Below are positions 1,800 through 31,825 of a DNA stretch of 64,000 bases, in pieces (positions within the stretch are counted from its first letter, which is position 1; each line of letters begins with the position of its first letter). The position numbers and the translations under genes were made by a program. The stretch is from Mytilus edulis. Its lineage: Eukaryota. The notes under the pieces were generated by a model. The model searched no databases, had not been told where the DNA came from, and saw only the letters and a list, made by a program, of their open reading frames with translations. The DNA lies in assembly GCF_963676685.1 (NCBI RefSeq), contig NC_092349.1, positions 80,538,001-80,602,000 of the forward strand. The letters run 5' to 3'.

Positions 1800-1899
1800 A
1801 TTGGATTGTTGGACAGACACAGGATTTTGAGTTTGTTTGAGAATTTCTGGGATACAGTCAAAGATAATATAAAGATGCATATGAGAAATCCTAGGAGAT
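1800..1899 (+). CDS. EFCAB5: EFCAB5-like exon a ([33 protein letters not shown])
   Basis: tttacag|ATT acceptor, T|gtaaga donor; the split codon T+GG gives the W of NPRRWP. Confidence 0.85.
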
Positions 1900-4800
1900 G
1901 TAAGAACATGTTTACTTATTTAAAACCAACATTATATAAATCAACAATTTTCGCTGTTGTCTGCTGTATGGTTGGGTTGTTGTCGCTTTGACACATTCCC
2001 CATTTCCTTTCTCAATTTTAATTGCAATTCTTGAAAATAATTTTGTGTCTTGATTATTACAGTCATCATTTACCTATTTCTGTATATGATTTAAATAAAA
2101 CTTAGTTTTTGAAAAAAAAAAGCACTATTAGAAACAATGGCAATTCAGGTTGTCCCATTCTATTTCAAAACATTTAAGGATAACAACATTATTGTCTTTT
2201 TTGCAAATTTTCTTCAAATGTTATGTTGGGCAATAAAATAAAATTTAAAAGTTGAAATGTGCATTTAATAGGGAAAAACATGTTAGAGGCCTACAGTACT
2301 CAGCTAATTGCAAACGTATAAAAAATTTATTTCATAATTTTACAGGGCCTGTGGTTGAAGTAGATGAAGTTGAGGACACTTACAACGATGATGAGGACAT
2401 TAAACCTGTAGAGGAGACTGAACAGAAATCTGAGGTGCCTGCACCCTCGAAAGAGACAACAGTATCAGAGTCACCAGAAGGTATGTCATATTGAATTGGG
2501 AGTATTTAACTTATATTTAACATTAATAATTCTCTTGGTAAAAATCATTGTAACAGAAATTTTCTTTGTGATATTTTTACTACACAATCTGCTATAGTAA
2601 TTGTCTTTTTAAAAGTAAAGATTCAGTGAACACTTTGTTCCTCAGTGACCCTTTATCTAAGCTGCCAAAAAGTACAAAACAAGTCTTAAGAACTCCAAAA
2701 CAATGACTGAGGCATAATAGAAACTACCTTAAATAGTTTTAAGATCCAACAACTGTTGTGCAATTTACCAAGAAAGGAATCTACAAATTAAAGTTCCTTT
2801 TACAGTTTAGAATTTTACTTTGACCAGCTCCAAGGAAAACATATGCCTAGACATTATGATGATTTTGATTATTTCCCTGTACCTCAGAATTCACACACAT
2901 TTAAATGTATTTTTATAAGCACTGCGATATGAAGATTCCACACATTCTATATGTTAAAAACTTTCATTTAAAGATTTTGATTAAATTATCAGTTTATTTC
3001 ATTTCGTAATTTTGTTGGCATGAAGTTTATATTTTCTTTATTTTTGTTCACTTTATTTTGCATGTTGTTTATTTTGTTTTTGTTATTTATTATCATCATC
3101 AGTTAAAACTGAACAAAAGCCACAAACTCCACCTCCTCAACAGGAAGAAGTACAAACTCCTCCCAAACAGGAGGAACAAAAACCCATAACACCTCCACCT
3201 CAAGAAAAAGAAAAGACTGAAGAAGCACTTAAACCTGAAGAAAGTAAGAGGGATGAAACTAAACCAACAAAAGAAGAAGTAAAACCAGAAGAAACTAAAC
3301 CATCTGATGCCTCTACAGAGGAAACAAAACCCACAGAAGAGGCCAAGCCTACTGACACTGAATCATCAAAGCCTACTGAAGAGGTCAAAGGTGAAGAATC
3401 AAAGCCTACTGAAGAGGTCAAAGTTGAAGCATCAAAGCCTACAGAAGAGGTCAAAGTTGAAGCATCAAAGCCTACAGAAGAGGTCAAAGTTGAAGAACAA
3501 GCACCTGCTGAGCCAAAGACTGAGACAGAGAAGTCTGAAGTTAAACCAACACAGGAACAGGAAGTTGTTAAAGAACCTAAAACTGAAGAGACCAAAGAGA
3601 AGGAGCCTGAAAAGTCTGCTACTGAAGGAGAAAATGCAAAAACAGAGCAGACAACAGAAGAGTTTAAGTCTGAGGACAAAAAAGTGGAGGAAGCAAGTGA
3701 AGTTCCAGAGGAAAAGAAGGAAGAGGAACCAAAAACAGACAATAGCACTGATGTTAAAGAGGTGTCTAATGTTGAAAAAACTGAGGAGGTTAAACCTTCA
3801 TCGGAAGGTAATGAGTAGATTGGATAGCCCCATAGAAATTACTACATGTATTAACAAATGATTTATTGGATTTATGCTCACAGAAAATGCATATATTTTA
3901 ATCAAAGTAATCAACTTGTCCAAATTAAAGAAAAACAATTGTCCAAGTAAAAGACTTGTACTGCAAGATTATTTTCCTGAAAACACTTTGCATGAGTTCA
4001 TTTTACTGTTTGTTTTTTATTTTGATTTATTTAATTTTTGCATGAAGTTTTGTCGTATTTTAAGTTGAAAATATCCTAATTATAAGTTATCAATGTATAA
4101 TATATTGTATATATAAGTGGAGTGCTATTTTATCAAGTTGCAATATTGCTGCATAACTTTTCAATTTTACAAGTTCCGCCTATATATAGATATCAATACA
4201 CATTATTAACTTGATGTGTTGATTATTATTTGTATAGATATCAGTGTGAGTAGAGAACAGTCTAAGGAATCCATCCACTCAGAGACAACAAATCAATTAG
4301 GAAGTGTTAAGTTTGCTGAAGGAACCACCTTTGATAGGGAGAGAACTGGTAGGTATTATTTTATATATTATAGTCATAAATTAAACTATAGCCAAGGGAG
4401 ATAACTGGTAGATGATATACTCTACAGTAGAACCACCTTTGATAGGGGTAGAACTGGTAGCTATTATACTCTATACGGTAGAACCACATTTAATAGGGGT
4501 AGAACTGATAGCTATTATACTCTACAGTATTGAATTAAAGTCCAATAGACAACTTTCGAGTTCAATGCATTTCCGTGAAAACTTTTGTTTTAGTGAATAT
4601 CATTTGTGTGTTGAGGGGCTTAGTTTTAGTCACTTCTGTTCCAATGTTGAACGAGTGGTTGAATAACTGTGATGCTACATTGCGCTATTTGGCAAATTGA
4701 ATTCTCTTAATTGACAATCAGCACTGCTGTCATTAGGGAATTGTGATTAAGTACCTACAGAACAAACATTTTTTCTAGTTTATCCTGCACAATGACGATC

Positions 4801-7800
4801 ACAAAGAAGCTTGATGCATGTTAATAGTGCAGGGATACAATCGATCCCCTCTATCTGGTAAATGACATCATAAAGGCATGCATAATTGACGAGTTTTATC
4901 CAGGGACGGACACTATTAGTCTACATTATTCCCTATAGCAAACGGAGACAACTGATAGGTATAATACACTATCGTCCTTCCCATTGGCTATATCTCACTG
5001 CTCTGGTGTCACAGCTTTGAAACATGATCAGAACTTACCAGCTTATAGAAGACCTTATCCCACTTTCTCTTTTTAAGCGTAAAACTGCCTAAGGGAAGGG
5101 TGAAAAAGACCAGAAATAGAAAAAAAAAGCCAGTTATCAACACAACAATATATTTTGGAAGTTTTTAGGAATTATTAAGCAGGGGAATTTCTTGGGTGTA
5201 TTTATAAATAACACTTGTTTAGACTACTAAATGACTTATGGTTTTGATGGACATACTTAACCATCTTGAAATAGAAGTTAAAATAGTATTTGAAACTAAA
5301 GTATAAATATTCACCTCAGTTAACACAGGTGTTTTTATATGGTTACTTGATACATTATTTATGTTTATTTTTGTGTTTTAATTTTCCAGTAATGACAGCA
5401 CGTAGTCAACAATCAGGAACCTCAGCCTTTGATGAGAATGTCTTGAATGTATCACAGTTTGTACAGCTAACAGAAACATTCCTCAATAAAGATGAAAAAC
5501 CAAAACAAGAGGCCTTCGTTATGTTGGCTAAGTTTATCAAAGAAGGATATGAAGAGACAGAAGAAGAAAAGATGGACAGACTTATTAAGGTACCATGATA
5601 ATTCAAATTGTTGTAAAATAACAGAACATCATTCTTGTAGGACAATGTCAGATTTTGTTGTTATTCTGTAATAATTTAATTTTGGATGTAACGCGTCTTC
5701 TGATTGGCTGACGTTATTTTGTTATGAGCCCATATACATAATTTAGTCATGTGACCGTGACGTCATCAACGTTTTTTCATGGTTTTCTATGGTTTAAAAT
5801 GGAATTTAGAATTAAATTATAAGAAATAACTGTAATATTTTTTCTGTCTATTTGCGCGTTATTCAGTGTGCACCAAATTTTTTATGCTATTTCTTCATCG
5901 ACAGAAAAAATATTACAGTCATTCCTTAATTATTGATTAAAGTTTTCTTATTATGGTTCATCTAAATCCACTCAGTAAATTTCCCAATCCCATCCTTTAT
6001 TTGCAAGACAAAGTTTTTTAGTTTTTTAGAAAACTCTTTTTACATTTTGATTGAATAAATAAATAAATAAATGATTACACTGGGCAAGATTTTATTTGGA
6101 TTTATTAGTTTTTCGCATTGATTTTGTCTTTTGCCTGGTCAATCTTTCAAAACATTCAAAGAAAACTTGGAGTAACCTGAATATGTTGTCTGTGTACTTT
6201 CTATGAAACCTATCCATATAAGGAATCATTACTGCAAGTAGTAACTTTATGAAAAATATGAGTATATTTCATCCTATTTGCTGACAATATGTCTGGACAT
6301 TTTATTTTTAGGCTCGTAAAGAGGCATTGTCATCACAAAGGAAACATATGATGGATCAGCTGTTTGAGAAATGGGATAATGATGGGTCAGGCTTCTTGGA
6401 TCTAGAGGATGTAGAGGGCATTATGGTTAGATATAAAGATGGACAAGAGAATGAGGCCATTAATAAGGGTAAGTATTTGATTAAAAATGGGATGTTAAGC
6501 TTCCATGAGGCAATTTTTCATGAGTATTTGTAATTGTGATATAAAGATAAAAGAAAATGCACATTCAATTCTTGAGTTTCTTACACCAAGAATGAATTGA
6601 TGTTTTAGGATATGTCTCAGAATAAAACAAGAAAAATACAGGCACACACAACACACATATGTATCAAATAATCAAAAACATGTCTCAGGTATGAATTTCT
6701 TTCCATTTGTCAATAAATGAATAATATGTATAAGTTCTGTTTATTTTAGCCGTTGTGCCAGAAACTAAAGAACTTAATCAATCAAATTCATGTAAGAGTT
6801 GTGTAAAAATGTTGTTACATGTATTTAGAAAGGAATGGGTTTGTAGTTAGAATTCACATAAAGCTTGTGTTATTGTTAGGGATCAATAGATATTAGTTTA
6901 TTCTTTACTCCAAGGACTAAAGGAATGTAATTATATAGCTGCAATAACCACTAAACATAATTACTTCATATTTGGACTGCAGCATGACACAGTGGGTTAT
7001 AAAATGTGAGCACTTTTTTTAGGATCTGTAAGACACAGATTTCATGATTGTTGATACTTTGAATTTTTCAATGAACTTAAATTTGTCATCAAACATTCCT
7101 CTATAACAACTCCTTCATAGTTGGCATTGATTATTTGTTTCAGAATTGATTGTTTATCGACAATTGTTTTACTTACCTATAGTTGTTAATGTCTGTATCA
7201 TTTTTGGTCTCTTGTGGACAGTTGTCTCATTGGCAATCATACCACATCTTCTTTTTTATATTAACACAGTTCTCAATGATTATTTAGGACTTGTACAAGT
7301 TAGAATTAGTTTGGAGAAAAAAGCTTTAGGTTATTTGCTTTGGTGATTGTCTGCTATGATAAAAATAAACATAAATATAATTCATTAAATATTATCATGA
7401 AGTACAATATATGTGTTAGCTACTGAATAGAACTTGTCAGTCTGAAGGAAAATAATTTCTTTACAAAACATCTACAATCTACAATTTACAATCTATGCAT
7501 TGAACTTTATTTTCTATTATGCATAAGCATGACATGATATCTTCTTTTTTCGTTTATATGTTACTTGTAATGCTATCTCTGTATTTAAATGTTATGTTTT
7601 TTCTTCTTTTCTCCTGTTTGTACAAGGATTTAAAAATATATATATATATATATATATAAGGTAGATGTATGTTTAATAGCATCCAACACATTTTTATATA
7701 AAAAGAGTACAAAAGGGTTTTTTTTCAATATTTTTTTTTTAAAGTGGTGGCTGAGTCAACTAAGGTAGTAAATTGTGTTATATATTGTTAAAATGTAAAT

Positions 7801-10800
7801 TTAATCAAAATGAGTATTAAGAAGTAGGCACAGTTTGCCCTCAATATATCTAGATGTAAATATTATGTTGGAGAAGTTCTACTGAAACTTCAAGTCAAAT
7901 TACCAATAATATTTAGAAATCACCTGTTCTTATAGAAGACAAAAATATAATGAGACTTATTCATGACAGAATAAACAATATGGGAAATATATTCTTCAAG
8001 GTAGAAATACATTGTATACTTATCAAAATTGAAGTAGTCTCCAGTATTTTTTATAGTCTATCCTGTTTTAGAAAATAAACTGTTTCTCTGACTTGCTCAA
8101 TGCTCTCCAGCTTTGTACTGGTTTGGCTTAATAACTATTTTGATCTGATGAGTCGTATGTAGACGAAACGCTTGTCTGGCGTATCAAAATTATAATGCAG
8201 CATTATTGCTGGTACCTTTGATAACTATTTACACCACTGGGTCGATGCCACTGCTGGTGGACGTTTCATCCCCAAGGGTATCACCAGCCCAGTAGTCAGC
8301 ACTTTGGTGTTGACATGAATATCAATTATATGGTCATTTTTATAAATTTTCCGTTACAAAACTGAATTTTTCGAAAACCTAAGGATTTTCTTATTCCAGG
8401 AACAGATTACCTTAGCTGAATTTGGCACAACTTTTTGGGATTTTTGGGTCCTCAATGCTCTTCAACTTTGTACTTGTTTGGCTTTATAACTATTTTGATC
8501 TGAGCGTCACCGATGAGTCATATGTAGACGAAACGCACGTCTGGCGTATTAAAAATATAATCCTGGTACCTTTGATAACAATTGCTGCTATTTTGTAGTC
8601 CATGTATTGTCAATATTATTAAGCTCTCTTTTGACTTTACAGCTAAAACTAGGTTAAAGAAGACTACTAAATATGCACAGGACAACAGACTCAGTAAGAG
8701 AGAATTTAGAACATTTGTCCAGGCTGTTACAGATGAAATCTCTGGTGCTGATTCATTTGATTATTATATAGATTTCCTAACCAATAGTGTGGAGGTAAGA
8801 GTTATGTGCCCTTATATAAGATTTTAGAAAGAGTTTATATGGGAAATGAAATCTCTGGTGCTGATCCATTTGATTACTATATAGATTTCTTAACCAATAG
8901 TGTGGAGGTACAAGTTGAAATAAGAGTTATACAAATTTATCAAAAAGGTAACTTGAACTATTATTTTGTTTGAAAAAAAATGGGAATAGGAGGAATATAA
9001 GCAATCATTTTCATATAATGATTTGTTTGTTTTCTCACATACCGGTATTCATCATTTTCCTGAAATCGCAATAATTCATCTCACATTTTTCCAATTTTTC
9101 AAAAATTGCAATAATAATTTTAATCAAAGACAATTATTTCTGGATTTGCATAGAAACATTGTGGGAAATGGAGTTATAAATTAAAACTTTTGACGTTAAG
9201 AAACATATTGTGACCCTTGGTGCTCAGGCAAATTGAGAGGCCAAATAGATAATGATACAATATGAGCATGAAAACCAAATTAAACTTTCAAGTATAAAAC
9301 TAAATTATATTTTATCTTTTACCTTTTAATCTTACAGAGAACCTATGCTGAAAGAATAAGAGGAGAGGCAAGAAAGAAATGGTTACAACAGGTTGTCAGT
9401 GCTGCAGAGACAAGTGGGGCCAGTATGGAACCAGTTTACAAGAGTGTCTTCCAGGCTTTATATAAGGTATGCAAATGAAATCACTGTAACGTTATTTTCT
9501 ATTTCCATTGTTGACAAAGACGTTTTCAATAAAGTACTCCTTGTACCACAAAAGCATATGAATTCTGAAATGAAAATATTTGTAAGATGTCTGTAAAGGT
9601 TTGACTAGGAAATATTGTTAACATTGTAAATATTCGATGAGATTTGAATTTTAAACAATCATTGAAATGTGGCAATTCTTAAGACATCATAATTGCTTTT
9701 ATTTTGATTGTGGTGCTTTTACCCAGATTTCATGGTTTGCTGTACATGGAAATGGGATAGTGCTAGTAGGACCCGTTGTCCTACGAACACATATTCTCAT
9801 TATCATTTACTTTAGACATTGATACAAATTCCATGTATTTCCTAAATGTATTTGTAGTTTTGTTATTGTATGATTAAACTATTTCCTATTTTAAAGGACT
9901 CTGAAGCCCATGGAAATGGTAAGAAGATAAGCTCCAATATTGCTATGTTGGAGCGTAATCGTTTTGATCAAGAACGAGGTGAAGTTTGTCTCCGATATGT
10001 GGCTGCCACCATTGATGATGCTGACTTCCTGCTCGGTAAAATACTCTACAAGGACATGAAAGGAATTAGGTAAAATATTATACTTACGATGGCTAGATGT
10101 TTCATAAGGAATAAAGAAAAAAGATTATCCGTTAAAAAACCAAACATCATCAGTTAAAGAGATTTTTTGAGATTTTTTGCTTTTATATTTATTTTTGTTT
10201 AACTTTCTCATCCTTCATTTATCCTTTTGGTATCAGACCAAACGAAAGAAATATTATTTGCTGTATGTTGAATTTTTTTATATTCTTATGAACCCTTTAA
10301 AATCAGATAAAAAAATGTTAGTAAAGGGAGATAATTTACTTGCAGTTTTGCATCTGTTGAACGAGGCCAACCAATACATGTACCCAGAGTGGCAAACCAT
10401 GGTAATGTACAGTTCTGGAATCCATACAGACTACCAGAGGTAAAGTTATCTTCTTATAATGAAAAATTGTTACAATTAAAAGGAATGAAAATGTTAAAAA
10501 GCAGGTACTTTCAAAATGGTTTATTGATGTATGTTAAGTAATGGACAATAAATCAGTCATGATAAATAAGCAGCTCTGAAAAAACTATTTTAGTTTAAAT
10601 GACATTAACACTACAAATTTTACTGCACCATTTGAGCATTTGACAATAAATTCTACTATATCTTTAGACTAAAAAAGGACTATTTATGAAAAATACTATT
10701 TTCACAATATATTTTTTTATTGTTTGCACAGAATTGTATACTGTTTATATATTTTTACCATATTTTATGTTTTATAGGACCGTGAGGGATCCTTCATCGT

Positions 10801-13800
10801 AGTACCATTAAAGGACAAGAGAAAGAGAGTGTTTGGATTGATTGGAGTAGACACACTCAACGACAGACATTCTAAGACTATCTTTATCACTCATGAAATA
10901 CAGTACTTCCAGGTAATTTAAACTAGTCATTGCAGTGTGTTTCATGGAATATCTATATATATGTTGGACTAAAAACAAAAGCTTCAATGCCTTGACAAAA
11001 TTAAAATTTCAAACTTCAATAACCCAAGTGAAAACTTTTTAAAATGAAGGATGTTTACTGTTCATCATTACACTTGTTTCTGGTTGGTTAAATAGACCAT
11101 TAAAAATGATTATTATTCAGTCAATTAACATTTTAGTAAAACATCATTTTGCCTAATTTGAAATTTTTTCCACCATACAAGTAGACAAGCATATATGAAT
11201 TAAATTTTAAAATGTAGAAATCTGTAAACTGAAATACAGTAAAGACAACACTGTAGTTGGTTCACAAATATTTGTTCTAATGCATATTCTGCAAAAGTCA
11301 TGAATTTATTCTACATCTCTTCTAAGGCATTAAGTTCTCACTTTATCACTCTGTACAGACACTCCGTCTTTCTCCACCAATAAAAACTTGCCTCCATGAT
11401 TAAGGGAGTTGGCTTCTCAGTTTCAAAATAATTAAGTTTTCAAAACACTAGCATATATTGATATGTGATTAATAAAGAAATCAAAAGAGCAAAAAAACTA
11501 TATAGGTCACCGTGCTTGTTTTAGAGATATAAGCCATTGAAATTTTGGCAGGTAAATGTTCTCTCTTGACTTTTCATAGCTTTATCATTGACAAGTTTAA
11601 GTCCTCAAAAACTTTTAAAAAATAATTTAAAAATTTTATCAGATTTTAACAGACAGCTTATCATTATACACGTAAAAGAATTATAAAAAGAAAAAAGGGG
11701 ATCACCGGGCAAAATTTTTTAAGGCATTCAAATGGATAAAACCAGAGGATTCCGAAAATCTGACCAAAATTCCAAATGACAATCGAGTGTCCTTAAGCTC
11801 ACAATGCTAAAAGTGGAATGAAACACCAATTAATGAATTGATAACACTATACCACAGTACTGTTGCAAGCTTTTGTTTTTGCTTTTCTTCATGAATGAAA
11901 ATAGATATAGGGTATACATCAACGAGTGGAAACCTATGATCCAAAGCCAAAAGACATCTTTGCTTCATGAGGCTGCAAAGATGTGCTAAAGGGTGGCATT
12001 ATATTTTAGTTCTAACTGATTACTAACAATAATAATATTGCTTAAGTTTTATCAGTAATTGTACAATTTATAATTGGATACAATTTGTTGCTGTAGGGTG
12101 TTGCTAAAGCCTTCAGTATAGCCTACCACCACATTGACATGAGAAAGAAACTCTTACGTATCACAGAAAGTGCTGTATCTTGGATCCACCGTAGAAATCC
12201 ACATGTTCATGAGATATCCACATACATGGTAGAACCAGATGGTAAAGAGAAACAGGATTATGTCCTCAGGAAGATGATGAACACAGATGCTAAAGGCAAT
12301 GTTCAGAACTTAATAAATCCACCCAGACTGGAAAGGAAGGATAATCTTTTCAGGTGGGTTATTGGTTATATCTTGGGTACTCTATCTGACTCCCAATCTG
12401 GTGTCCTTTTCACATGGACTTAGCTGTTAAATTTGTCAGATTTTATCTCTTGCTTGCGCTTAGAATACATAAGAATATAACAACACAATTAATGAAATTC
12501 TACCAAGTCTATGGCTTGCATGAATTTTTTCTTAAATGTAACTACTGAAATCAGTTTCAGTTTCTCCAAAACTTTAAAGTACTTTAACTATTGCTTCAGG
12601 TGATGAGATGGAAACACCAAAGTTATCAGTCGAGCCTGCCATATTTACACTGTTAAATTTGTTCTGTGTCTGAACTGTATGAATATAACTAGATAATGAT
12701 TTTCTTTGAAATTTCTGAAACAAAACAAAACATGACATTATTTTTACAATATGATAAGCATTCTCTTCACAATAATTACGATACCTTATTTTATATTGTA
12801 GGGATTATTTGTTCAAGACAGTAGACACATCAGAGAGTATATCAGCAGATGCATACGGGGAAAGACATTTAGCTTTTCCTCTTCGTGACGATAATGGCAA
12901 AGCTATAGCTGTAGTAGACATCAGTATAGGAGAGACAAAGATATTACCAACACACGAAAACAAAGAAGTTCAAAGAATGTTACGTCTTCTACAACAAGCT
13001 CATAAGGAAATTACAAGAGAATTCGCTGGCGATGATAAAAATATAGTGCTAGGTAAGTCATAAAAAGAGCCTTAAAACTGATTATAAAAATGCAGTGATA
13101 GGTAGGTCACTTGTCACTTTAGAGCCCAGTTCAGTGCATTTGAATGGATAATAACTGGTGTTTATTTGGTAAGAAAGTTTCTAAGATATTTCTTAAATGC
13201 TGTCATCTTAATTATTTATTAGACAAGACAAGAAATAAAAAACATACGCAAAACAGAATCCATTGATCAGGAAGTACACCTAATGCACTATTATACACAA
13301 TTAAATTCATACACCTTTACAATAGAATGAAATCTCTGATCGACCTAATGTTAGTGCAATTGTTTCGTTACAAATATTGCAAAATTGTTTGGTCAAGTGT
13401 TTTAGATATATATACTGTAAATTCAGAAATTATTTTGATGTTTTTATTATTGTGAAAAATCACATTTAAGGAAGTTTTTTTATGCCCCATTTATGGGCAT
13501 TATGTTTTATGGTCTGTGTGCCGTTTGTCATTTGTTAGTGTGTACATCCTTCTGTCCATCCATCTGTCCGTCTGTCCCACTTCAGGTTTAAGTTTTTGGT
13601 CAAGGTAGTTTTTATGAAGTTGAAGTCCAATCAACTTGAAACTTAGTACACATGTTCCTTATGTTATGATCTTTCTAATTTTAATGCCAAATTAGAGATT
13701 TTCCCCCATTTTCACAGTCCACTGAACATAGAAAATGATAGTGCAGATGGGACATCCGTGTACTGGGAAACATTCTTGTTCATAAAAGATTGGACATATG

Positions 13801-14085
13801 GATTCTTAGAATGCATAAAAATTTAAAAATTATACAAAGATTTTTTCCAATCTTGCAGAAGCAGAAAGAGATGATGAGAACCGAATGGATATAATGTTTG
13901 ACAGACTCATGTTGATGGAACTTCGTGAAAACGTTTCTAAGATTGATGCTAAAGCCTTCGCTGAACTGAGAAGTTATAATGACCCACCAAAGATTGTAGT
14001 CAAAATAGTAAAGGCTGTTAGTGCAATATTCTTCCTTGAAAAAGTACAGAATGGTGAACTGGATGACTGGACAAATCTTAGAACA
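1800..14085 (+). CDS. EFCAB5: EF-hand calcium-binding domain-containing protein 5-like; partial (5' exons upstream of window, 3' exons missing at the N-gap). join(1800..1899,2346..2480,3103..3807,4238..4348,5390..5589,6312..6468,8643..8794,9338..9466,9897..10069,10346..10439,10778..10912,12097..12353,12802..13052,13859..14085)
   Basis: All 13 internal introns are GT..AG with matching phases and give 2826 nt with no stop. Peptides such as [36 protein letters not shown] (EF-hand loop), [58 protein letters not shown] and [24 protein letters not shown] (GAF-like) match my recollection of vertebrate EFCAB5. Orthology not confirmed by a search. Confidence 0.88.
2346..2480 (+). CDS. EFCAB5: EFCAB5-like exon b (phase 1-1, acidic)
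   Basis: tttacag|GG ... GAAG|gtatgt; 135 nt. Confidence 0.85.
3103..3807 (+). CDS. EFCAB5: EFCAB5-like exon c, 705-nt symmetric E/K/P/T-rich low-complexity exon
   Basis: T-rich tract + catcag|TT ... GGAAG|gtaatg; open Met-less frame ([16 protein letters not shown]...KPSSE) absent from the ORF track; phase 1-1. Confidence 0.8.
3366..3497 (+). repeat. Coding minisatellite, 4 x 33 bp (SKPTEEVK[G/V]E[E/A])
   Basis: Units start at 3366, 3399, 3432 and 3465: tcaaagcctac(t/a)gaagaggtcaaag(g/t)tgaag(a/c)a. Confidence 0.95.
4238..4348 (+). CDS. EFCAB5: EFCAB5-like exon d (DISVSREQ...TTFDRERT)
   Basis: tgtatag|AT ... ACTG|gtaggt; 111 nt, phase 1-1. Confidence 0.8.
4395..4530 (+). repeat. Intronic 51-bp-period repeat copied from the exon d 3' end plus donor
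   Basis: 4430-4467 matches 4322-4359 at 35/38; further copy at 4481-4518, partial copy at 4395-4418. Confidence 0.9.
5390..5589 (+). CDS. EFCAB5: EFCAB5-like exon e (VMTARSQQ...KMDRLIK)
   Basis: ttttccag|TA ... AAG|gtacca. Confidence 0.85.
5820..5928. repeat. Inverted repeat (29-bp arms) at the end of a probable non-autonomous DNA element (~5670-5930)
   Basis: taagaaataactgtaatattttttctgtc (5820-5848) vs rc of 5900-5928: 27/29. Confidence 0.7.
6312..6468 (+). CDS. EFCAB5: EFCAB5-like exon f, EF-hand ([12 protein letters not shown])
   Basis: tttttag|GCT ... AAGG|gtaagt; 12-residue EF-hand loop with D1, D3, S5, G6, D9, D12. Confidence 0.9.
8145..8182 (+). ncRNA. Hammerhead ribozyme motif (core intact, stem I 5' arm deleted)
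   Basis: CTGATGA-gtc(gtatgta)gac-GAAA-c(gctt)g-TC-tggcgt. Confidence 0.75.
8504..8547 (+). ncRNA. Hammerhead ribozyme motif (stems intact, core U4->C)
   Basis: gcgtca-CCGATGA-gtc(atatgta)gac-GAAA-c(gcac)g-TC-tggcgt; stem I gcgtca/tggcgt. Confidence 0.8.
8643..8794 (+). CDS. EFCAB5: EFCAB5-like exon g (AKTRLKK...FLTNSVE)
   Basis: tttacag|CT ... GAG|gtaaga. Confidence 0.87.
8846..8910 (+). repeat. Intronic copy of the exon g 3' end plus donor
   Basis: 62/65 identity to 8733-8797. Confidence 0.95.
9338..9466 (+). CDS. EFCAB5: EFCAB5-like exon h ([18 protein letters not shown]...FQALYK)
   Basis: cttacag|AGA ... AAG|gtatgc; this frame is not in the ORF track. Confidence 0.88.
9897..10069 (+). 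CDS. EFCAB5: EFCAB5-like exon i ([10 protein letters not shown]...KDMKGI)
   Basis: tttaaag|GAC ... AG|gtaaaa. Confidence 0.88.
10346..10439 (+). CDS. EFCAB5: EFCAB5-like exon j ([32 protein letters not shown])
   Basis: cttgcag|T ... GAG|gtaaag. Confidence 0.87.
10778..10912 (+). CDS. EFCAB5: EFCAB5-like exon k, GAF-like ([13 protein letters not shown]...HEIQYFQ)
   Basis: tttatag|GAC ... CAG|gtaatt. Confidence 0.88.
11404..11792. mobile_element. TTAA-flanked non-autonomous DNA element (Kolobok-like), inserted in a SINE-like 3' remnant
   Basis: TTAA|GG ... CC|TTAA with a degenerate TIR. The flanks rejoin as ctccaccaataaaaacttgcctccatga-TTAA-gctcacaatgctaaaagtggaatgaaacacc, which resembles a mollusc SINE tail (from memory). 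Confidence 0.55.
12097..12353 (+). CDS. EFCAB5: EFCAB5-like exon l ([12 protein letters not shown]...RKDNLF)
   Basis: ctgtag|GGT ... AG|gtgggt. Confidence 0.87.
12802..13052 (+). CDS. EFCAB5: EFCAB5-like exon m (DYLFKTVD...DKNIVL)
   Basis: attgtag|G ... CTAG|gtaagt. Confidence 0.87.
13476..13780 (+). mobile_element. HINE family 1, complete copy
   Basis: T-run + atgcccc..gggcat 5' hairpin, (ctgt/ccat/ccgt) microsatellite, 3' end gggacatccgtgtactgggaaacattcttgtt; inverted copy at 1-260. Confidence 0.75.
13859..14085 (+). CDS. EFCAB5: EFCAB5-like exon n ([19 protein letters not shown]...WTNLRT)
   Basis: cttgcag|AA ... ACA|gtaagt; last exon visible before the gap. Confidence 0.87.
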
Positions 14086-14302
14086 GTAAGTAATTTTAAT
14101 TTATCCTTTACACAGTAACTACATGTATCAATGATGTTTGGGGTAGAAAATGGACAAGTCTCAGAACAGTAAGTCAGATTTAATTAGTCATTTACACAGT
14201 AGACTTTTAAAAAAACAAACAAATCACAGATTTCCTTAGTTGCTGAAATTCAAATAAAAAAAAATAGAACCTGCTTTGAAAGTTCGGTTGCATGATTTCA
14301 AC

Positions 14303-14402
14303 NNNNNNNNNNNNNNNNNNNNNNNNNNNNNNNNNNNNNNNNNNNNNNNNNNNNNNNNNNNNNNNNNNNNNNNNNNNNNNNNNNNNNNNNNNNNNNNNNN
14401 NN
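14303..14402. other. Assembly gap (100 N, probably of unknown true size)
   Basis: Run of exactly 100 N. Confidence 1.
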
Positions 14403-14937: not shown

Positions 14938-16780
14938 TTTTTAGCTCACCTGGCCCGAAGGGCCAAGTGAGATATTCCCATCACTTTGCGTCCGGCGTCC
15001 GTCGTCGTCGTCCGGCGTCCGGCGTCCGTCGTCCGTCGTCCGTCGTCGTCGTCCGTCGTCGTTTAACTTTTACAAAAATCTTCTCCTCTGAAACTACTGG
15101 GCCAAATTTAATCAAACTTGACCAAAATCATCATTGGGGTATCTAGTTTAAAAAATGTGTGGCGTGACCCGGTCAACCAACCAAGATGGCCGCCACGGCT
15201 AAAAATAGAACATAGGGGTAAAATGCAGTTTTTGCTTATAACTCAAAAACCAAAGCATTTAGAGCAAATCTGACATGGGGAAATATGTTTATCAGGTCAA
15301 GATCTATCTGCCCTGAAATTTTCAGATGAATCGGTCAACCTGTTGTTGGGTTGCTGCCCCTGAATTGGTCATTTTGAGGAAATTTTGCTGTTTTTGGTTA
15401 TTATCTTGAATATTATTATAGATAGAGATAAGCTGTAAACAGCAATAATGTTTGGCAAAGTTAGATTTACAAGTAAGTCAACATGACCGAAATGGTCAGT
15501 TGACCCCTTTAGGAGTTATTGCCCTTTATAGTCAATTTTTAACCATTTTTCATAAATCTAAGTAATCTTTTACAAAAATCTTCTCCTCTGAAACTACTGG
15601 GCCAAATTAATCCAAACTTGGCCACAATCATCATTGGGGTATCTAGTTTAAAAAATGTGTGGCGTGACCCGGTCAACCAACCAAGATGGCCGCCACGGCT
15701 AAAAATAGAACATAGGGGTAAAATGCAGTTTTTGGCTTATAACTCAAAAACCAAAGCATTTAGAGCAAATCTGATGTGGGGTTAAAATGTTTATCAGGTC
15801 AAGATCTATCTGCCCTGAAATTTTCAGATGAATCGGTCAACCTGTTGTTGGGTTGCTGCCCCTGAATTGGTAATTTTGAGGAAATTTTGCCGTTTTTGGT
15901 TATTATCTTGAATATTATTATAGATAGAGATAAACTGTAAACAGCAATAATGTTCAGCAAAGTAAGATTTACAAATAAGTCAACATGACGGAAATGGTCA
16001 GTTGACCCCTTTAGGAGTTATTGCCCTTTATAGTCAATTTTTAACCATTTTTCGTAAATCTTAGTTATCTTTTACAAAAATCTTCTCCTCTGAAACTACT
16101 GGGCCAAATTAAATCAAACTTGGCCACAATCATCTTTGAGGTACCTTGTTTGAAAAATGTGTCCAATGACCTGGCCATCCAACCAAGATGGCCACCACGG
16201 CTAAAAATAGAACAGGGGTAAAATGTAGTTTTTTGCTTACAACTCTGAAACCAAATCATTTAGAGGAAATCTGACAAGGAGTTTAATTGTTAATCAAGTC
16301 AATATATATCTGCCCTGAAATATTCAAATGAATTGGACAACCTGTTGTTGGGTTGCTGCCCTCCAATTGGTAATTTTTAAAGAAATTTTGCTGTTTTTGG
16401 TTATTATCTTGAATACTATTATAGATAGCGATAAACTGTAAACAGCGATAATGTTCATCAAAGTAAGATCTACAAATAAGTCCACATGACCTAAATGGTC
16501 AATTGACCCCTTAAGGAGTTATTGCCCTTTATAGTCAATTTTTAACAATTTTCATTAATTTGGTAAATTTATGTAAATTTTTACCAAATATTTTTCTCAC
16601 TTACTAATGGGCAAAGTTCATTATAGATATAATTGTAAGAAGCAAGAATGTTCAGTAAAGTAAGAACTTCAAACACATCACCATCACCAAAATACAATTT
16701 TGTCATGAATCCATTTGTGTCCTTTGTTAAATATGCACATAGACCAAGGTGAGCGACACAGGCTCTTTAGAGCCTCTAGT
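14938..16780 (+). mobile_element. HINE family 2 with three ~500-bp internal tandem units
   Basis: 5' ttttagctcacctggcccgaagggcca hairpin, (GTC/CGT)n microsatellite, units starting at 15067, 15567 and 16069, subterminal IR gctcacct/aggtgagc, 3' hairpin aggctctttagagcct + ctagt. Confidence 0.85.
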
Positions 16781-18061
16781 ATACCACTGTTGGCAAAATT
16801 ATTCATTTATTAGATTTTATCCACTAAAATTTGGTAAATTATTCTTTTTTAGCAATTTAAAATGTGTGTATATTTTCCACTTGTTATAACATAAAAACAA
16901 TTATAATTTCTATAGTTATGCACATCATATGGCCAAAATTTACTCCAGCATTGAAACCATTATAAGAGAATGATACAACTGCCATATTCTTTAACAGTGT
17001 TGTAAGAAAAAACGTATGCCTTAAATAGTATGCCAAATATAATTCATTATTATATGTTTATTGTTGAATGTTGAAGTATCAGATTTTATTAAATATGAAA
17101 AAACATTATCTGTTCTGTTTTGTATTTGTCTTGCAAAATTATTCAATACATTGTACCTTATGATTTATTGATAACAGGCTCAAAAATTTATAAAAGGCTC
17201 AGATTCTCCCATTCTTAAAATAATTTTCAAAAATAAAATCCATTAGATTAAAGCTTGTTCAATTCAAATAGTTCTCTTGAAAACAGTCATTCTTATTTGC
17301 AGTCATTTATGAGGATAGTTTTATTGCCATTGAATACCACAAATCATTATCCAACTAGGGTAGAACCACAAGTATTGTTTGTATTAATGTTTCAAAATGT
17401 TTATTAAAATCAAAAACAATTTCACAATAGCATTCTTTTTACAGATTTTATTGCCTTGATAACTTAGTATTAACAGTTATCTTCTAAAGAAATATTTTTC
17501 ACTCATATTTGGTTAAAGAGAACATAAAGTTTCAAGAAGTTAATTTAGGAAACAAGCATTATGACAGTTTCTGTCTACTCAGCTGCCTTAACTCCAAATT
17601 TAACTTTTATAGGATATAAAGACCAGACATATCTCTGTGTGAACAGTTTATTGACAATTTTAAGTCTAGTATATCTTAGATGCCATAAGCAATACATCAA
17701 CTACATTTAATGTATTGAATGGTTGTAAAGTGCACATGTCAGTCTGGCAAAGTTAATCTAGCATGGTTCATTGGCAGAAGTTTAGTTTTTGTGGTAATGT
17801 TCAGTTCCCAGATCCAATAAGCACTAGGTTAATTAAATCTTTATCTGCTGTATGTGATCAAATTCCGGCAGTATTTATCTGACCTTTATATTTTCCTGGT
17901 TCATTGGTCGGTGGTTGTTTTTTCGTGTGTAAGATATCTCAAATACTTTCAGCAATAGGTCATCTAATTTTGAATATGGAATGATTGTGACGTTCTGTAT
18001 CTGTATGTATACGTTGAAGACACTAATTCTGGCTTTTACTCAACGGGAGAGAGAGAGACAC

Positions 18062-21000
18062 CTATTGGCGGTGTTGGAGAGCAGCCTTGAAGCTCTCAAC
18101 TGTATCTGCGCATACAGTACGGTCTTCCAGTTGGTTCCAGTGTAGTATGCTCTTGACAAAGAAAGAGTTCTTATATGGATCGGTGTTGCTAGAAATAGTT
18201 TCTAGTGCCTTCGTATTGTTCTTCACTGAATTTGTCACTATATTGGCACTTACACAATTGTCAAATGTTTTAGGTTTCATTTTTCTCTTCGGTTGACTTT
18301 TAACAAGAAAATCTTCGGGATTAATAGCTGGGACCAACCCCTCAATCACTTTGTACAGAAATACCAGCCGTTGACTTGTTCTTCTCGTTTGTAGGTTGTC
18401 TAGTTCTAACTCGGGTAGCATTTTGGTGACCGACCTCTCTTCTCTAGACCTATAGTCACCTGTAATGAATCTAGCTGATCTGCGTTGTATTCTTTCCAAT
18501 TGATTTATATCATGTTGTGTATATGGGTCCCATATTATGGCACCATATTCCATAGTTGATCGTACTAATGATATATATGTTGTCTTTTTGCAATCTTTTG
18601 GGAAGAAGCGTAGATTTCTTCTTAGAAAGCCGAGTGTCGAATTGTCTTTCTTGGCTATATGTAAGATAATATTGCGTGGTCCAATTTAGGTCTTCTGATA
18701 TTATTTAGCGTAGGTATGGGTTGTGTTGGACTTGTTGTAGTACATGTCCGTCTAGGCTGTACATCTTCTGGCTTTTGTTCTTAAGGCTAAGTATATATCA
18801 CTTCTTTGCATTGAAGCGCATGCCCTAGGTATTGGCCCATACATCTGGGTTTTGGAAGTCTCGCTGTAGGAGTGTGTGGTCATGTTGGATATTTATGTTC
18901 CTGTACAGGAGGCAGTCATCTGCGAAAAGTCTGCACGATGATTGTACGGCATCTGGAAGGTCGTTAATGAGGCAGAGAAAGAGAAGGGGTCCTAGTACTG
19001 TACCTTGTGGTACACCGGAGTCAACTGAAGCTTCTTCTGACTCCTCCCCATCTACGACAGCTTTCATTTTCCTTTGGGTTAGGAACACTTCCAACCATTT
19101 GTTCAGTGGTCCTCTTATACCGTATTCATTCATTTTGTGCAGCAGTTTGTTGTGTGGCACAGTGTCAAATGCTTTGGAGAAGTCCAGGATAGCTACACCA
19201 ATTTGTTTTCCTGCGTCAAAGGCTTTCATGAAGTCATGTAGTGTGACTAGCAGTTGGGTTTCACAGGAATATCCTGGCCTGAAGCCATGGTTTAGTGATG
19301 TAAGTATTATGTGCTTCTCTAGATGTTTAAGTATATGTCTACAGATAATATGTTCCAGTAGCTTGCATGGTACAGATGTTAGTGATACTGGTCTGTAGTT
19401 TTGTGGTGCATGTTTATCTCCCTTTTTGAAGACACTTGATAAATTTGCGTTTAGCCAGTCTCTTGGTAGTGTACCAGTGTTGGATGATTTTTTGGAATAT
19501 CATTGTAAGTTGTTTTGAGCATTCTTTCAATATAAGGTTTGGTATGCCGTCTGGTCCTGATGCCTTGGATGTATTCAATTTTTTCAGCAGCTTTTCGACT
19601 CCTTCTGATCTTATGTCTAAAGGAGGTATTGTGCTTTTTATATGCTTTGATGTTGCTGGCAGAGTTTTGTCTTTATCTCTTGTGAATATTGAACTGAATT
19701 GTTTAATCAGTAATTCTGCTTTCCCTTTGCTGTCATTGATTAGGTGTCCATTGCTTTTAAGGGGTGTTATTCCTATGTTGTCCTGTTTTCTTGATTTAAC
19801 ATATTTCCAGAAGGGTTTTGAGTTGTTGTTTTCTAGCCCTTCTAGGATTGTGGTGTTGATGTAGTTATACTCAGCTTTCCTGATTTGCCTCTTACATTCT
19901 TTTTGAAAATGTCTATAGTTGGTCCAGTTGTTAGTTTTCTTTGCCTGTTGATATAGCCTTGTTTTCTTTTTAAACATTTTCCTGGTTTTATGATTGATTC
20001 AGGGTAGACTGTTTTTAGATCGGATGAGTTTTGATGGTATATGGCTGTCAAGGTTCGAATAGAGGTCTGTCTTGAACTTGTCCCATAGTTCCTGTACTGT
20101 GGCGCCTATGTGGTATTTCAATGATGTTGGTTGAAAGGATAGTCAGGTCTTTGTGTAGATCTTCCCATTTTGCTTTGGAGTATATATAGCATTTGCGTGG
20201 CTTCTTACTCTAATAATGTGGGTTTGTGTCGCAGTCTGTTACAATCATATTGTGGTCAGATATTCATGGAGCATTAGAAGATGTTTTAATAAGTGACGGG
20301 TTTGAAGTCGGTACTGTGTCCAGTAAGTTAATTATTGCCTCTTGTTGGTGTTTCGTGTATCTGTGTTAGTGAATGTGATATGATAACTTCCATTAGGGAT
20401 ATTTGGATTCCCTTTTCTTGTGAATTTTGGTTTACTAACATGGTGTTCCAGTTTATGTCTGGGCAGTTGAAATCTCCAGTTAGCATGGTGGTTTGATTTT
20501 TGTTTAAAATATGGTCTAATGATTTATCTAATTCCTTTATGTGTTCCATATTACGGTGTGGCATATAGAATGAGCCTATTGTGAGATCTCTTTTGTCTTT
20601 CAGTTGTATCTTTACCCATTCTATCTCACATTTTGTTACAAACTCTGGTTTTTCAATTGCAATAATGTGTCGTTTTGTACAAGAATGAAAACACCGCCTC
20701 CCAGTGTACCTCGATCATTTCTGTGGGCTGTGTAGTTTTCTGGAAAAACTTCAATAGATTTAATTGCATCTTTAGTTGGTTTTTTTCCAGGATGTTCTCC
20801 TTTCAACCATGTCAGGCTTGATGTAGTTGACTGCAGCTGAAAATTCAGATGTCTTGTCCTTGATGCTTCTACAGTTCAGTGTAAGGATTCTTAAGTTTTG
20901 TTTCTTTGGTATATTGAATACTTTGCTGCTGTTTGTTCTGTTTTTGCTTTTATTACTCTTTGATGTGTTGTTATTCATTGAATTATTTCCCTTTGGGCTG

Positions 21001-21542
21001 CTGGCTTTTAGTGGACTGAATGCATTTGACGTAATTGATTCAAATGTGCTGTTGTTGGTTAAAGGATCATAATAGTTTGAAGTGTTCAATTCGTAATTAT
21101 GAAAAGTGAAATTAGGAACGTTGATGCTTTCACATTTACAACATAGCCAGTGTACATTAGATCTTTGCAGTAGGTCGTAGTCTGCACATCATAATTCTAT
21201 ACATGTTTTGTGATGCCAGATGTGACAGTCGCCACAACATACTCCTTTGCAGTTCCATGTGACTGGGTGTTCACAAAGTCCACATGGGTAGATACTTTGT
21301 TGTTTTGTTCTTGGTCCAGGGTTTTGCTCTATGTCCCCTGCAAGGAGGAGAATAAGTATGACCATTGCATAGTTCTTATTCGACTTAACAGGTAGTGTCA
21401 TTGGTTTACGGCCTGATAATGACCATTTGTTGTTTAATAGATTTGTAAGTATGTGACGATGGTCCCATGATTTTTCATTGAAGATGGATTGCCCAATGTC
21501 ATATATCAGAGTCACTGCTATAATCAAAGTAAATATTTTCAT
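18062..21542 (-). pseudogene. LINE ORF2 (leader-2A-PHD-APE endonuclease-reverse transcriptase), disrupted
   Basis: ORF-track pieces 21189-21542, 20772-21089, 20328-20564, 19414-19977, 18825-19229 and 18062-18553 are collinear parts of one pol. Confidence 0.9.
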
Positions 21543-21650
21543 CTTGTATGATATTCTGTGAGTATCAAGCTTTTATAAATGTTGGGTTACTGTTGATGTC
21601 TTCAGTTTAGTTCATAAGAGCCCGTGCTGACTGAAACACAACAACAGCAA

Positions 21651-30852: not shown

Positions 30853-31430
30853 ATTTACATAACTTTGTTCTACTTATGGTCTTTGCATTGCTTCATTGGT
30901 TTTTTTTCTGCCTCCATTTGATCTATTGGAAAACTTTCAGTTAATTCAAGAAAATAGTAATGGGAATTTCCGTGAATGTTTTAAATAATTTTAAAAGACT
31001 ATGTTATACATACCTGAACAAATGACAATAATAGTAAACGGAACAATGATTGACATTGTATGTTTACCTGTATATAAGTAGATGTTAATATATCACGTTA
31101 CATATAATATTCCTTTTGAAAACCTATGTGTTTCATTTACATAACTTTGTATGCATATTCTTCTACTTATGGTCTTTGCATTGCTTCATTGGGTTTTTTT
31201 CTGCCTCCATTTGATCTGTTGGAAAACTTTCAGTTAATTAAAGAAAATAGTAATGGGAATTTCCGTGAATGTTTTAAATAATTTTAAAAGTCTATGTTAT
31301 ACATACCTGAACAAATGACAATAATAGTAAACGGAACAATGATTGACATTGTATGTTTACCTGTATATAATTAGATGTTAATATATCACGTTACATATAA
31401 TATTCCTTTTTGAAAACCTATGTGTTTCAT
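30853..31430. repeat. Recent tandem duplication, ~282-bp period x2
   Basis: Units start at 30853 and 31135, near-identical, with attt microhomology at the junction. Confidence 0.92.
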
Positions 31431-31825
31431 TTTAGATCTTGTAATTTCGAAAGTGACGGGGATTTTATTTTACAATCCTTGTCCTGCTTTGATATTCCTT
31501 TAGTTTTTTGTTTGCTTCTATTTTGTTTTGTTATTTCATTGTTTGAATTTGTCTATAGTATGTATATTTTCAGTAGTACAACTAAAAAATCAAAGGAACT
31601 GTGAATGTTTTGGCCTGAACTTGTTTCTCATTTGAAAATTATGAAGGTTTTGTCTATTCTTAAATATAATTAATATTTATAGGACGTATAAATCTGAAGC
31701 GTTTTCAAGTTAAAACTTATCGAAAGATTAAAAAGATAAAGCATGACATGGAATGTATATCAATGACAATTGTGTTTTCCTCTTTTCGGCACATATATAC
31801 GTACTTTAACTTCCATTGGTTATTT

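Follow-up and report, generated by a model that had tools for sequence, protein, structure and literature searches.

Duplicated exon ends at splice donors of the mussel Mytilus edulis: enrichment in sampled gene families and a probable route by ordinary tandem duplication

The gene EFCAB5 of Mytilus edulis lies at the start of a 64,000-nucleotide stretch of DNA (assembly GCF_963676685.1, contig NC_092349.1, positions 80,538,001 to 80,602,000; hereafter the window), and several of its introns carry, shortly after their splice donor, a degenerate copy of the preceding exon end together with its 5′ splice site. Do these copies, which we call echoes, reveal a duplication process directed at donors, or are they ordinary duplications that happen to survive there? 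A preliminary description of the locus had proposed the former, a junction-focused and undescribed mechanism such as co-transcriptional R-loop formation or template switching, and had offered the chance tolerance of random duplications as the neutral alternative. Here we show that the enrichment of exon-end echoes is real in the sampled gene families, at acceptors as well as at donors, and that the echoes belong to a known kind of structure that is common in the mussel. We consider it probable that they are ordinary tandem duplications, tolerated because splicing takes the first donor and preserved because deletions cannot remove the exon copy.

Four donor echoes in EFCAB5

The features on which the argument rests are as follows (GT gives the position of the donor dinucleotide; models are the three Mytilus EFCAB5 protein models).

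EFCAB5 gene, 1800 to 14085, plus strand: 14 coding exons in the window, covering about residues 354-1293 of a 1,348-residue Mytilus model, with further exons upstream
Exon d, 4238 to 4348, plus strand: true donor CTG/gtaggt, GT at 4349, score 6.6; models read FDRERT/VMTARS
Echo d1 (partial), 4395 to 4429, plus strand: GT retained at 4408, donor score 4.2 against 6.6 at the true site
Echo d2, 4430 to 4480, plus strand: 51-bp unit, GT retained at 4457, donor score 3.8
Echo d3, 4481 to 4529, plus strand: GT lost, AT at 4508
Exon g, 8643 to 8794, plus strand: true donor GAG/gtaaga, GT at 8795; copied part 8733-8803; models read TNSVE/RTYAE
Echo g, 8846 to 8916, plus strand: 113 bp downstream, GT retained at 8908, score 3.5 against 7.3 at the true donor
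Exon m, 12802 to 13052, plus strand: true donor TAG/gtaagt, GT at 13053; copied part 13031-13060; models read NIVL/EAERD
Echo m, 13080 to 13109, plus strand: 49 bp downstream, GT retained at 13102, score 6.0 against 7.1
Exon n, 13859 to 14085, plus strand: true donor ACA/gtaagt, GT at 14086; copied part 14068-14117; models read WTNLRT/YMNNDL
Echo n, 14151 to 14201, plus strand: 83 bp downstream, GT retained at 14169, score 4.3 against 4.7

The similarities given in the preliminary description were all recovered. The end of exon d (4322-4359) matches the copy at 4430 at 35/38 positions and that at 4481 at 32/38, and 4336-4352 matches the partial copy at 4395 at 16/17; for exon g (8733-8797 against 8846) the figure is 62/65, for exon m (13031-13060 against 13080) 25/30, and for exon n (14068-14117 against 14151-14201) 43/51 columns with one gap. 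All four echoes cover the junction between exon and GT, and they are recurrent and of differing ages, as had been stated. The donor-side scores for d, g, m and n stand far above those of shuffled sequence (z=19.4, 22.0, 8.7 and 12.1; 0/200 shuffles reach any of them), and none of the acceptors of the 14 exons in the window reaches 0/200 shuffles, the best being 3/200. Four additional upstream EFCAB5 exons, whose ends are approximate, are without a donor echo, giving 4/18 for the gene. Ahead of the third EFCAB5 exon (L216, about 8752) there is a weak acceptor-side match (score 29, z 4.1, 0/200 shuffles), possibly an old acceptor echo.

The echoes have the look of silent, decaying sequence. GT is retained in five of the six copies, and all five score below their own true donor; use of an echo donor would meet a stop before or inside the echo (d, g and m) or shift the frame (n), and the three Mytilus protein models, as gene models, splice from the first donor in 4/4 cases. 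Only 19-62 exon bases are copied, and the differences between exon and echo are spread over the three codon positions (13.2, 9.0 and 13.5%), which supports decay of tolerated copies. Tandem duplication of whole exons, with mutually exclusive use, was considered and rejected on these three grounds: the partial exon copy, the flat distribution over codon positions, and the stops and frameshift.

Echo d is a four-copy, head-to-tail array with a period of about 50 bp. Homology also extends through the intron half of echo n (z 5.8), in contrast to echoes g (z 0.6) and m (z 1.4), for which we infer a tandem origin. A contig from another sample (X3) crosses 4100-4608, and with it the whole exon-d array, without a break; it differs by 16 substitutions and 9 gap letters. 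Among the pieces listed, none extends across echo g. At position 8777 the base of the echo is carried by 12/15 RNA reads and by the contigs of other samples, so that one of the three differences between exon g and its echo is likely to be a private allele of this assembly.

The gene is identified by one exon that matches three Mytilus EFCAB5 clusters at 100%, in agreement with the tblastn map, and its spliced frame is open across 13 exons; an EF-hand Pfam match in the region scored below the cut-off. A 100-N gap at 14303-14402 follows soon after echo n, and tblastn finds no match in the window for the 47 C-terminal residues of Mytilus model P0391; the gap may thus hold the final exon. Within the large acidic exon at 3103-3807, a coding 33-bp repeat (3365-3497) is present in four copies at 96%.

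Exon-end duplications in dynein and myosin genes

As an independent sample we used the dynein heavy-chain and myosin genes of the same genome (1.8 Mb, two large gene families), with gene models built from homologues. Junctions were kept only if both sides aligned gap-free to at least three homologues (562/1021 in dyneins and 265/515 in myosins, where support included other predicted myosins of the same genome). An echo was called from local repeats within 300 nt scoring at least 24 bits, simple repeats excluded. Because exons misplaced onto later array copies concealed events (31/827 donors with echoes at that stage), later copies (non-first at donors, non-last at acceptors) were masked and the models rebuilt. 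First copies were counted, since in coverage profiles of all copies long arrays inflate the intron baseline and no enrichment is seen. Three further dynein loci served as a hold-out, analysed once the pattern was fixed.

Echoes were present at 47/816 donors (dynein 36/552, myosin 11/264); three of the myosin cases go back to a single shared event, a few calls depend on weak sites, and a looser rule gave 48. Acceptors had 22/787, one of them duplicating a donor array and dropped. With the hold-out loci (donors 7/101, acceptors 1/93), the totals are 54/917 donors (5.9%) and 22/880 acceptors (2.5%; Fisher p=0.0004). In unique, repeat-masked intron DNA the corresponding baseline was 1.17% (1.18% under a stricter definition), for an overall expectation of about 1.2-1.4%, and the GC-matched expectation was 11.7 donors and 9.7 acceptors. 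The enrichment ratio is 5.0 for donors (bootstrap 3.5-7.0) and 2.4 for acceptors (1.4-3.7). Rates vary between dynein regions (p=0.024). The window is high against the survey rate (4/14, p=0.007; 4/18, p=0.019), as is to be expected of one chosen by eye.

Donor echoes are thus more frequent both than acceptor echoes and than duplications in unique intron DNA. The statement that there is no equivalent at acceptors stands for EFCAB5 and fails for the genome, where acceptors are enriched as well.

The surveyed units are mostly 47-125 bp long (about 40-125 overall), head-to-tail and blunt, at donors, at acceptors and within introns. Clear tandems, in which the alignment covers at least 85% of the unit, make up 30/47 donor and 14/22 acceptor events. 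Many have expanded into minisatellites: at least three copies are present in 29/47 donor events, the maximum being 62 in the survey and 87 in the hold-out, and in 11/11 array ends examined only 0-2 matching bases extend past whole units. Long dynein arrays include donor arrays of 62 x 74 bp, 87 x 64 bp and 13 x 100 bp and an acceptor array of 75 x 78 bp (5.9 kb); donor and acceptor arrays lie at G000:C5 ~10106704, C8 ~41770079, C3 ~43853952 (minus strand) and C1 ~98722430. The window echoes are the decayed, 2-4 copy end of this range.

The intron share of the units is at most 20 nt in 21/28 clear donor tandems, against 9.3 under uniform placement, and in 5/6 of the hold-out, with unit edges uncertain by a few bases; on the corrected set, breakpoint uniformity is rejected (p=9e-6, n=30). 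A uniform distribution, which an earlier set had allowed (p=0.40, n=17), was discarded, as that set omitted units with less than 14 nt of intron and contained concealed arrays. Acceptor units are richer in intron, 11/13 carrying at least 18 nt, and the donor and acceptor shapes differ at cuts of 15, 18 and 20 nt (p=0.045, 0.003 and 0.049). Among clear tandems with at least 18 nt of intron the rates are equal (donors 11/917, acceptors 11/880), at a cut picked after seeing the data. The donor excess comes from units with less than 18 nt of intron, which is probably too little for an acceptor to function. Units that begin just past the donor and extend into the intron are at background (1 seen, 1.4 expected), which argues against a two-way break hotspot.

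Splice signals mostly persist in the survey echoes (GT 44/47, AG 19/22), and the echo donor is equal to or weaker than the true donor in 45/47. Of the units, 18/47 have a length divisible by 3, and 41/47 contain a stop. Neither a 10-11 bp periodicity among 45 unit lengths nor an excess of CpG at exon-side edges (4/40 against 2.3 expected) was found, and microhomology, exon-end GC and exon length gave no signal in these units. Introns with echoes are not longer than others once the echo is subtracted (median 401 against 505 nt).

The myosins offer a view of echo history. A 60-nt donor-spanning unit with identical edges is common to three myosin-II paralogues on two chromosomes and absent from a fourth:

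L143, 2421-2540: 2 copies of the myosin-II unit
L145, 1442-2424: 17 copies
L139, about 8390-8705, minus strand: 3 copies

At 3/3 diagnostic sites the echoes agree with the exon of the gene in which they lie, although the paralogues differ by 0.31 at 4-fold sites; beyond the array, their introns are homologous but strongly diverged. The simplest reading, to judge from these sequences, would be one old duplication held in step with its exon by exchange; recurrent, independent duplication with the same edges is the alternative. One of the myosin-II genes has a 129-nt common repeat between donor and first echo.

Proposed explanations: tolerance and shielding, or biased birth

We propose that the echoes originate in ordinary, short head-to-tail duplications that cover an exon end and its donor. 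A duplication ending a few bases past the GT would spare the first donor, which the spliceosome is assumed to pick in mussels as it does in a human case discussed below. Acceptor function needs a pyrimidine tract, and an acceptor copy would be tolerated only with at least about 18 nt of intron; fewer acceptor copies would then survive, leaving a donor excess. The exon copy would be immune to deletions and insertions, so that exon-rich units would survive several times as long as duplications confined to the intron. The echoes, silent and decaying DNA on this view, would be refreshed and enlarged by unequal exchange with the exon copy. The neutral alternative of the preliminary description is thus closer to the data than its main proposal; detectability alone, however, is too weak (1.2-2.1x), and shielding of the exon copy from deletion has to be added.

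In a model with deletions only, units of 70 nt with exon parts of 60, 40 and 15 nt would last 4.7-7.1, 2.5-4.8 and 1.7-3.3 times as long as intron-only units, and a free unit starting at +15 would last 1.3-2.2 times as long, an ordering that matches the observed one. Insertions and deletions are plentiful between samples; one 1.26-kb piece, for instance, shows 24 substitutions and 35 gap letters. Together with the GC effect, the modelled deletion would cover the overall 4-5x excess, but it might not suffice for the most strongly enriched class of units. The data do not call for a donor-specific mutation process, although one is possible.

Several points weigh against this explanation. The deletion-only model is a limiting case, with rates that are assumed and unmeasured, and simulations dominated by substitution reach only 1.2-1.6x. 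A selection ratchet on unequal exchange, in which harmful collapse is selected against, was tried and rejected as insufficient (at most 2.1x). The excess to be explained is 4-5x overall. Units of 41-130 bp number 40 against 5.9 expected, and clear units whose end lies no more than 29 nt from the donor number 19 against 1.4; a 6x factor still leaves p=0.001 for the latter, with the error of the background (20 events) ignored. Echo g keeps 95% identity in its exon half, while its intron half can hardly be aligned. Of the older donor echoes, 19/20 retain GT where a rough estimate would give 12.9, a difference that is presumably in part a detection effect.

The foremost alternative is a bias at birth: a mutation process that copies exon ends preferentially, with its downstream edge 4-20 nt past the donor, for example through break repair templated by nascent RNA or through exon chromatin. 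This is close to the R-loop or template-switch idea of the preliminary description, and we regard it as unlikely, while taking it seriously. It would account directly for the short intron share of the donor tandems and for the excess beyond substitution-based retention models; the identical edges in the three myosin paralogues could be recurrence, and the acceptor rate fits twice the baseline (p=0.38) whereas the donor rate does not (p=8e-6). Yet with short-intron units excluded the acceptors follow the donor gradient, the skew of the breakpoints also arises in a model of retention alone, and the survey found none of the microhomology that template switching would usually leave, nor the periodicity or CpG edges mentioned above. 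In its full form, an exon-end-directed process would make blunt duplications of 50-110 bp at several times the intron rate and, with exchange from the exon, would stock about 6% of donors with long-fresh spare sites, a picture that we likewise doubt. With acceptors enriched too, rates equal at 18 nt of intron or more, and the structure already in print, the claim of a donor-specific, undescribed mechanism is not upheld.

Selection that preserves spare donors, whether as additional U1 sites, as backups or as regulators coupled to nonsense-mediated decay, is considerably less probable. The persistence of GT, in older echoes also, and the stop that 41/47 echoes would add if used speak for such a role, but only 2/47 are stronger than the true donor, decay affects all codon positions, copy number runs from 2 to 87, and a stop is expected from any AT-rich piece of intron; database models show no echo use, and the introns concerned are not longer. 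We give slightly less credence still to the view that there is no true enrichment and that echoes are merely more visible in complex, GC-richer exons. Duplication cover in non-coding DNA does climb with GC, from 0.94% (25-30% GC) to 1.95% (40-45%), the ratio in the myosins on their own was 1.8 (0.4-4.1) until the gene models were corrected, and dynein regions differ; against this, 47 donors were seen for 11.7 expected after GC matching, the hold-out replicates, and on the uncorrected set the ratio of 3.2 was unchanged under uniform scoring. For the sampled families this view is already largely refuted. Least credible of all are assembly artefacts: although the independent contig bridges the exon-d array only and the N gap lies 100 nt past echo n, the copies differ by 5-20%, contig X3 holds the d array with variants of its own, and the myosin array is present on separate chromosomes with gene-specific variants.

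Known junction-spanning repeats and wider significance

Comparable structures have been published. In amphioxus, 'mirages' (Adh3, troponin C, the globins BflGb6 and BflGb9, and PGBD5) are minisatellite-like tandem duplications over an exon-intron boundary, found at both 5′ and 3′ boundaries, with units of 10-160 bp whose signals are mostly retained and which leave splicing unaffected; they show concerted evolution within arrays and were proposed as seeds of new introns (PMC3087553, PMC3902484), and their origin was called unclear (PMC3087553). The mussel echoes, namely the four in the window and the 54 donor and 22 acceptor events, share the boundary-spanning unit and the true exon copy at the array edge. 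The accounts of mirages are single-gene reports, whereas the mussel rates are measured against an intron baseline, favour exon-rich units and stand at a donor-to-acceptor ratio of about 2.4.

Human variable-number tandem repeats (VNTRs) that span junctions are described for F7 IVS7 (37 bp), 6-16, CBS IVS13, LMNB2 (100 bp) and PDGF (81 bp); in F7 the first unit spans the donor, the downstream copies are working yet silent pseudo-sites, and the most upstream site is chosen, as was shown in mammalian cells (PMC1557585). The mussel echoes likewise have a donor-spanning first unit followed by copies with splice signals. They differ in that the human cases in that account are a handful of genes and the F7 unit has only 4 exon bases (PMC1557585), whereas the window echoes are old remnants of 2-4 copies. 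In the model of intron gain by internal tandem duplication (Rogers; Gao and Lynch 2009, as cited in PMC3087553), small internal duplications carry the splice signals; the mussel echoes keep the original exon-intron structure. Human splicing-associated repeats (PMC10078293) have no bearing on the echoes. A genome-wide enrichment test of such echoes was not found in the literature, where limited coverage of subscription journals and bioRxiv supplements means that this is no proof of absence. Relative to the print found, our results add measured rates, the uneven placement of the breakpoints, and a set of myosin paralogues in which each echo follows the exon of its own gene.

If the rates of the sample apply generally, a duplicated splice junction lies at one end of about 1 in 12 mussel introns, and Mytilus would then be a natural test set for the choice of the spliceosome between identical sites and for intron seeding. 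In population-genetic terms, retention of shielded copies makes a clear prediction by which it can be told apart from mutation bias. The arrays also mislead gene finders: our initial models took a later copy as the exon at about 15 junctions.

The window has other repeats. A high-copy 260-nt repeat at 5670-5928 is missing from a contig of run X6 that joins both flanks, which indicates an insertion polymorphism, and a 293-bp tandem duplication at 30868-31432 is 97% identical. An element at 14944-16770 comprises a CGT-rich microsatellite together with three tandem units of 500 bp and resembles a common mobile element of mussels. On the minus strand, a long GC-richer stretch extends over about 18000-21600; it has a reverse-transcriptase-like motif, seen by eye, near 19150-19200 and is presumably a LINE-type retrotransposon.

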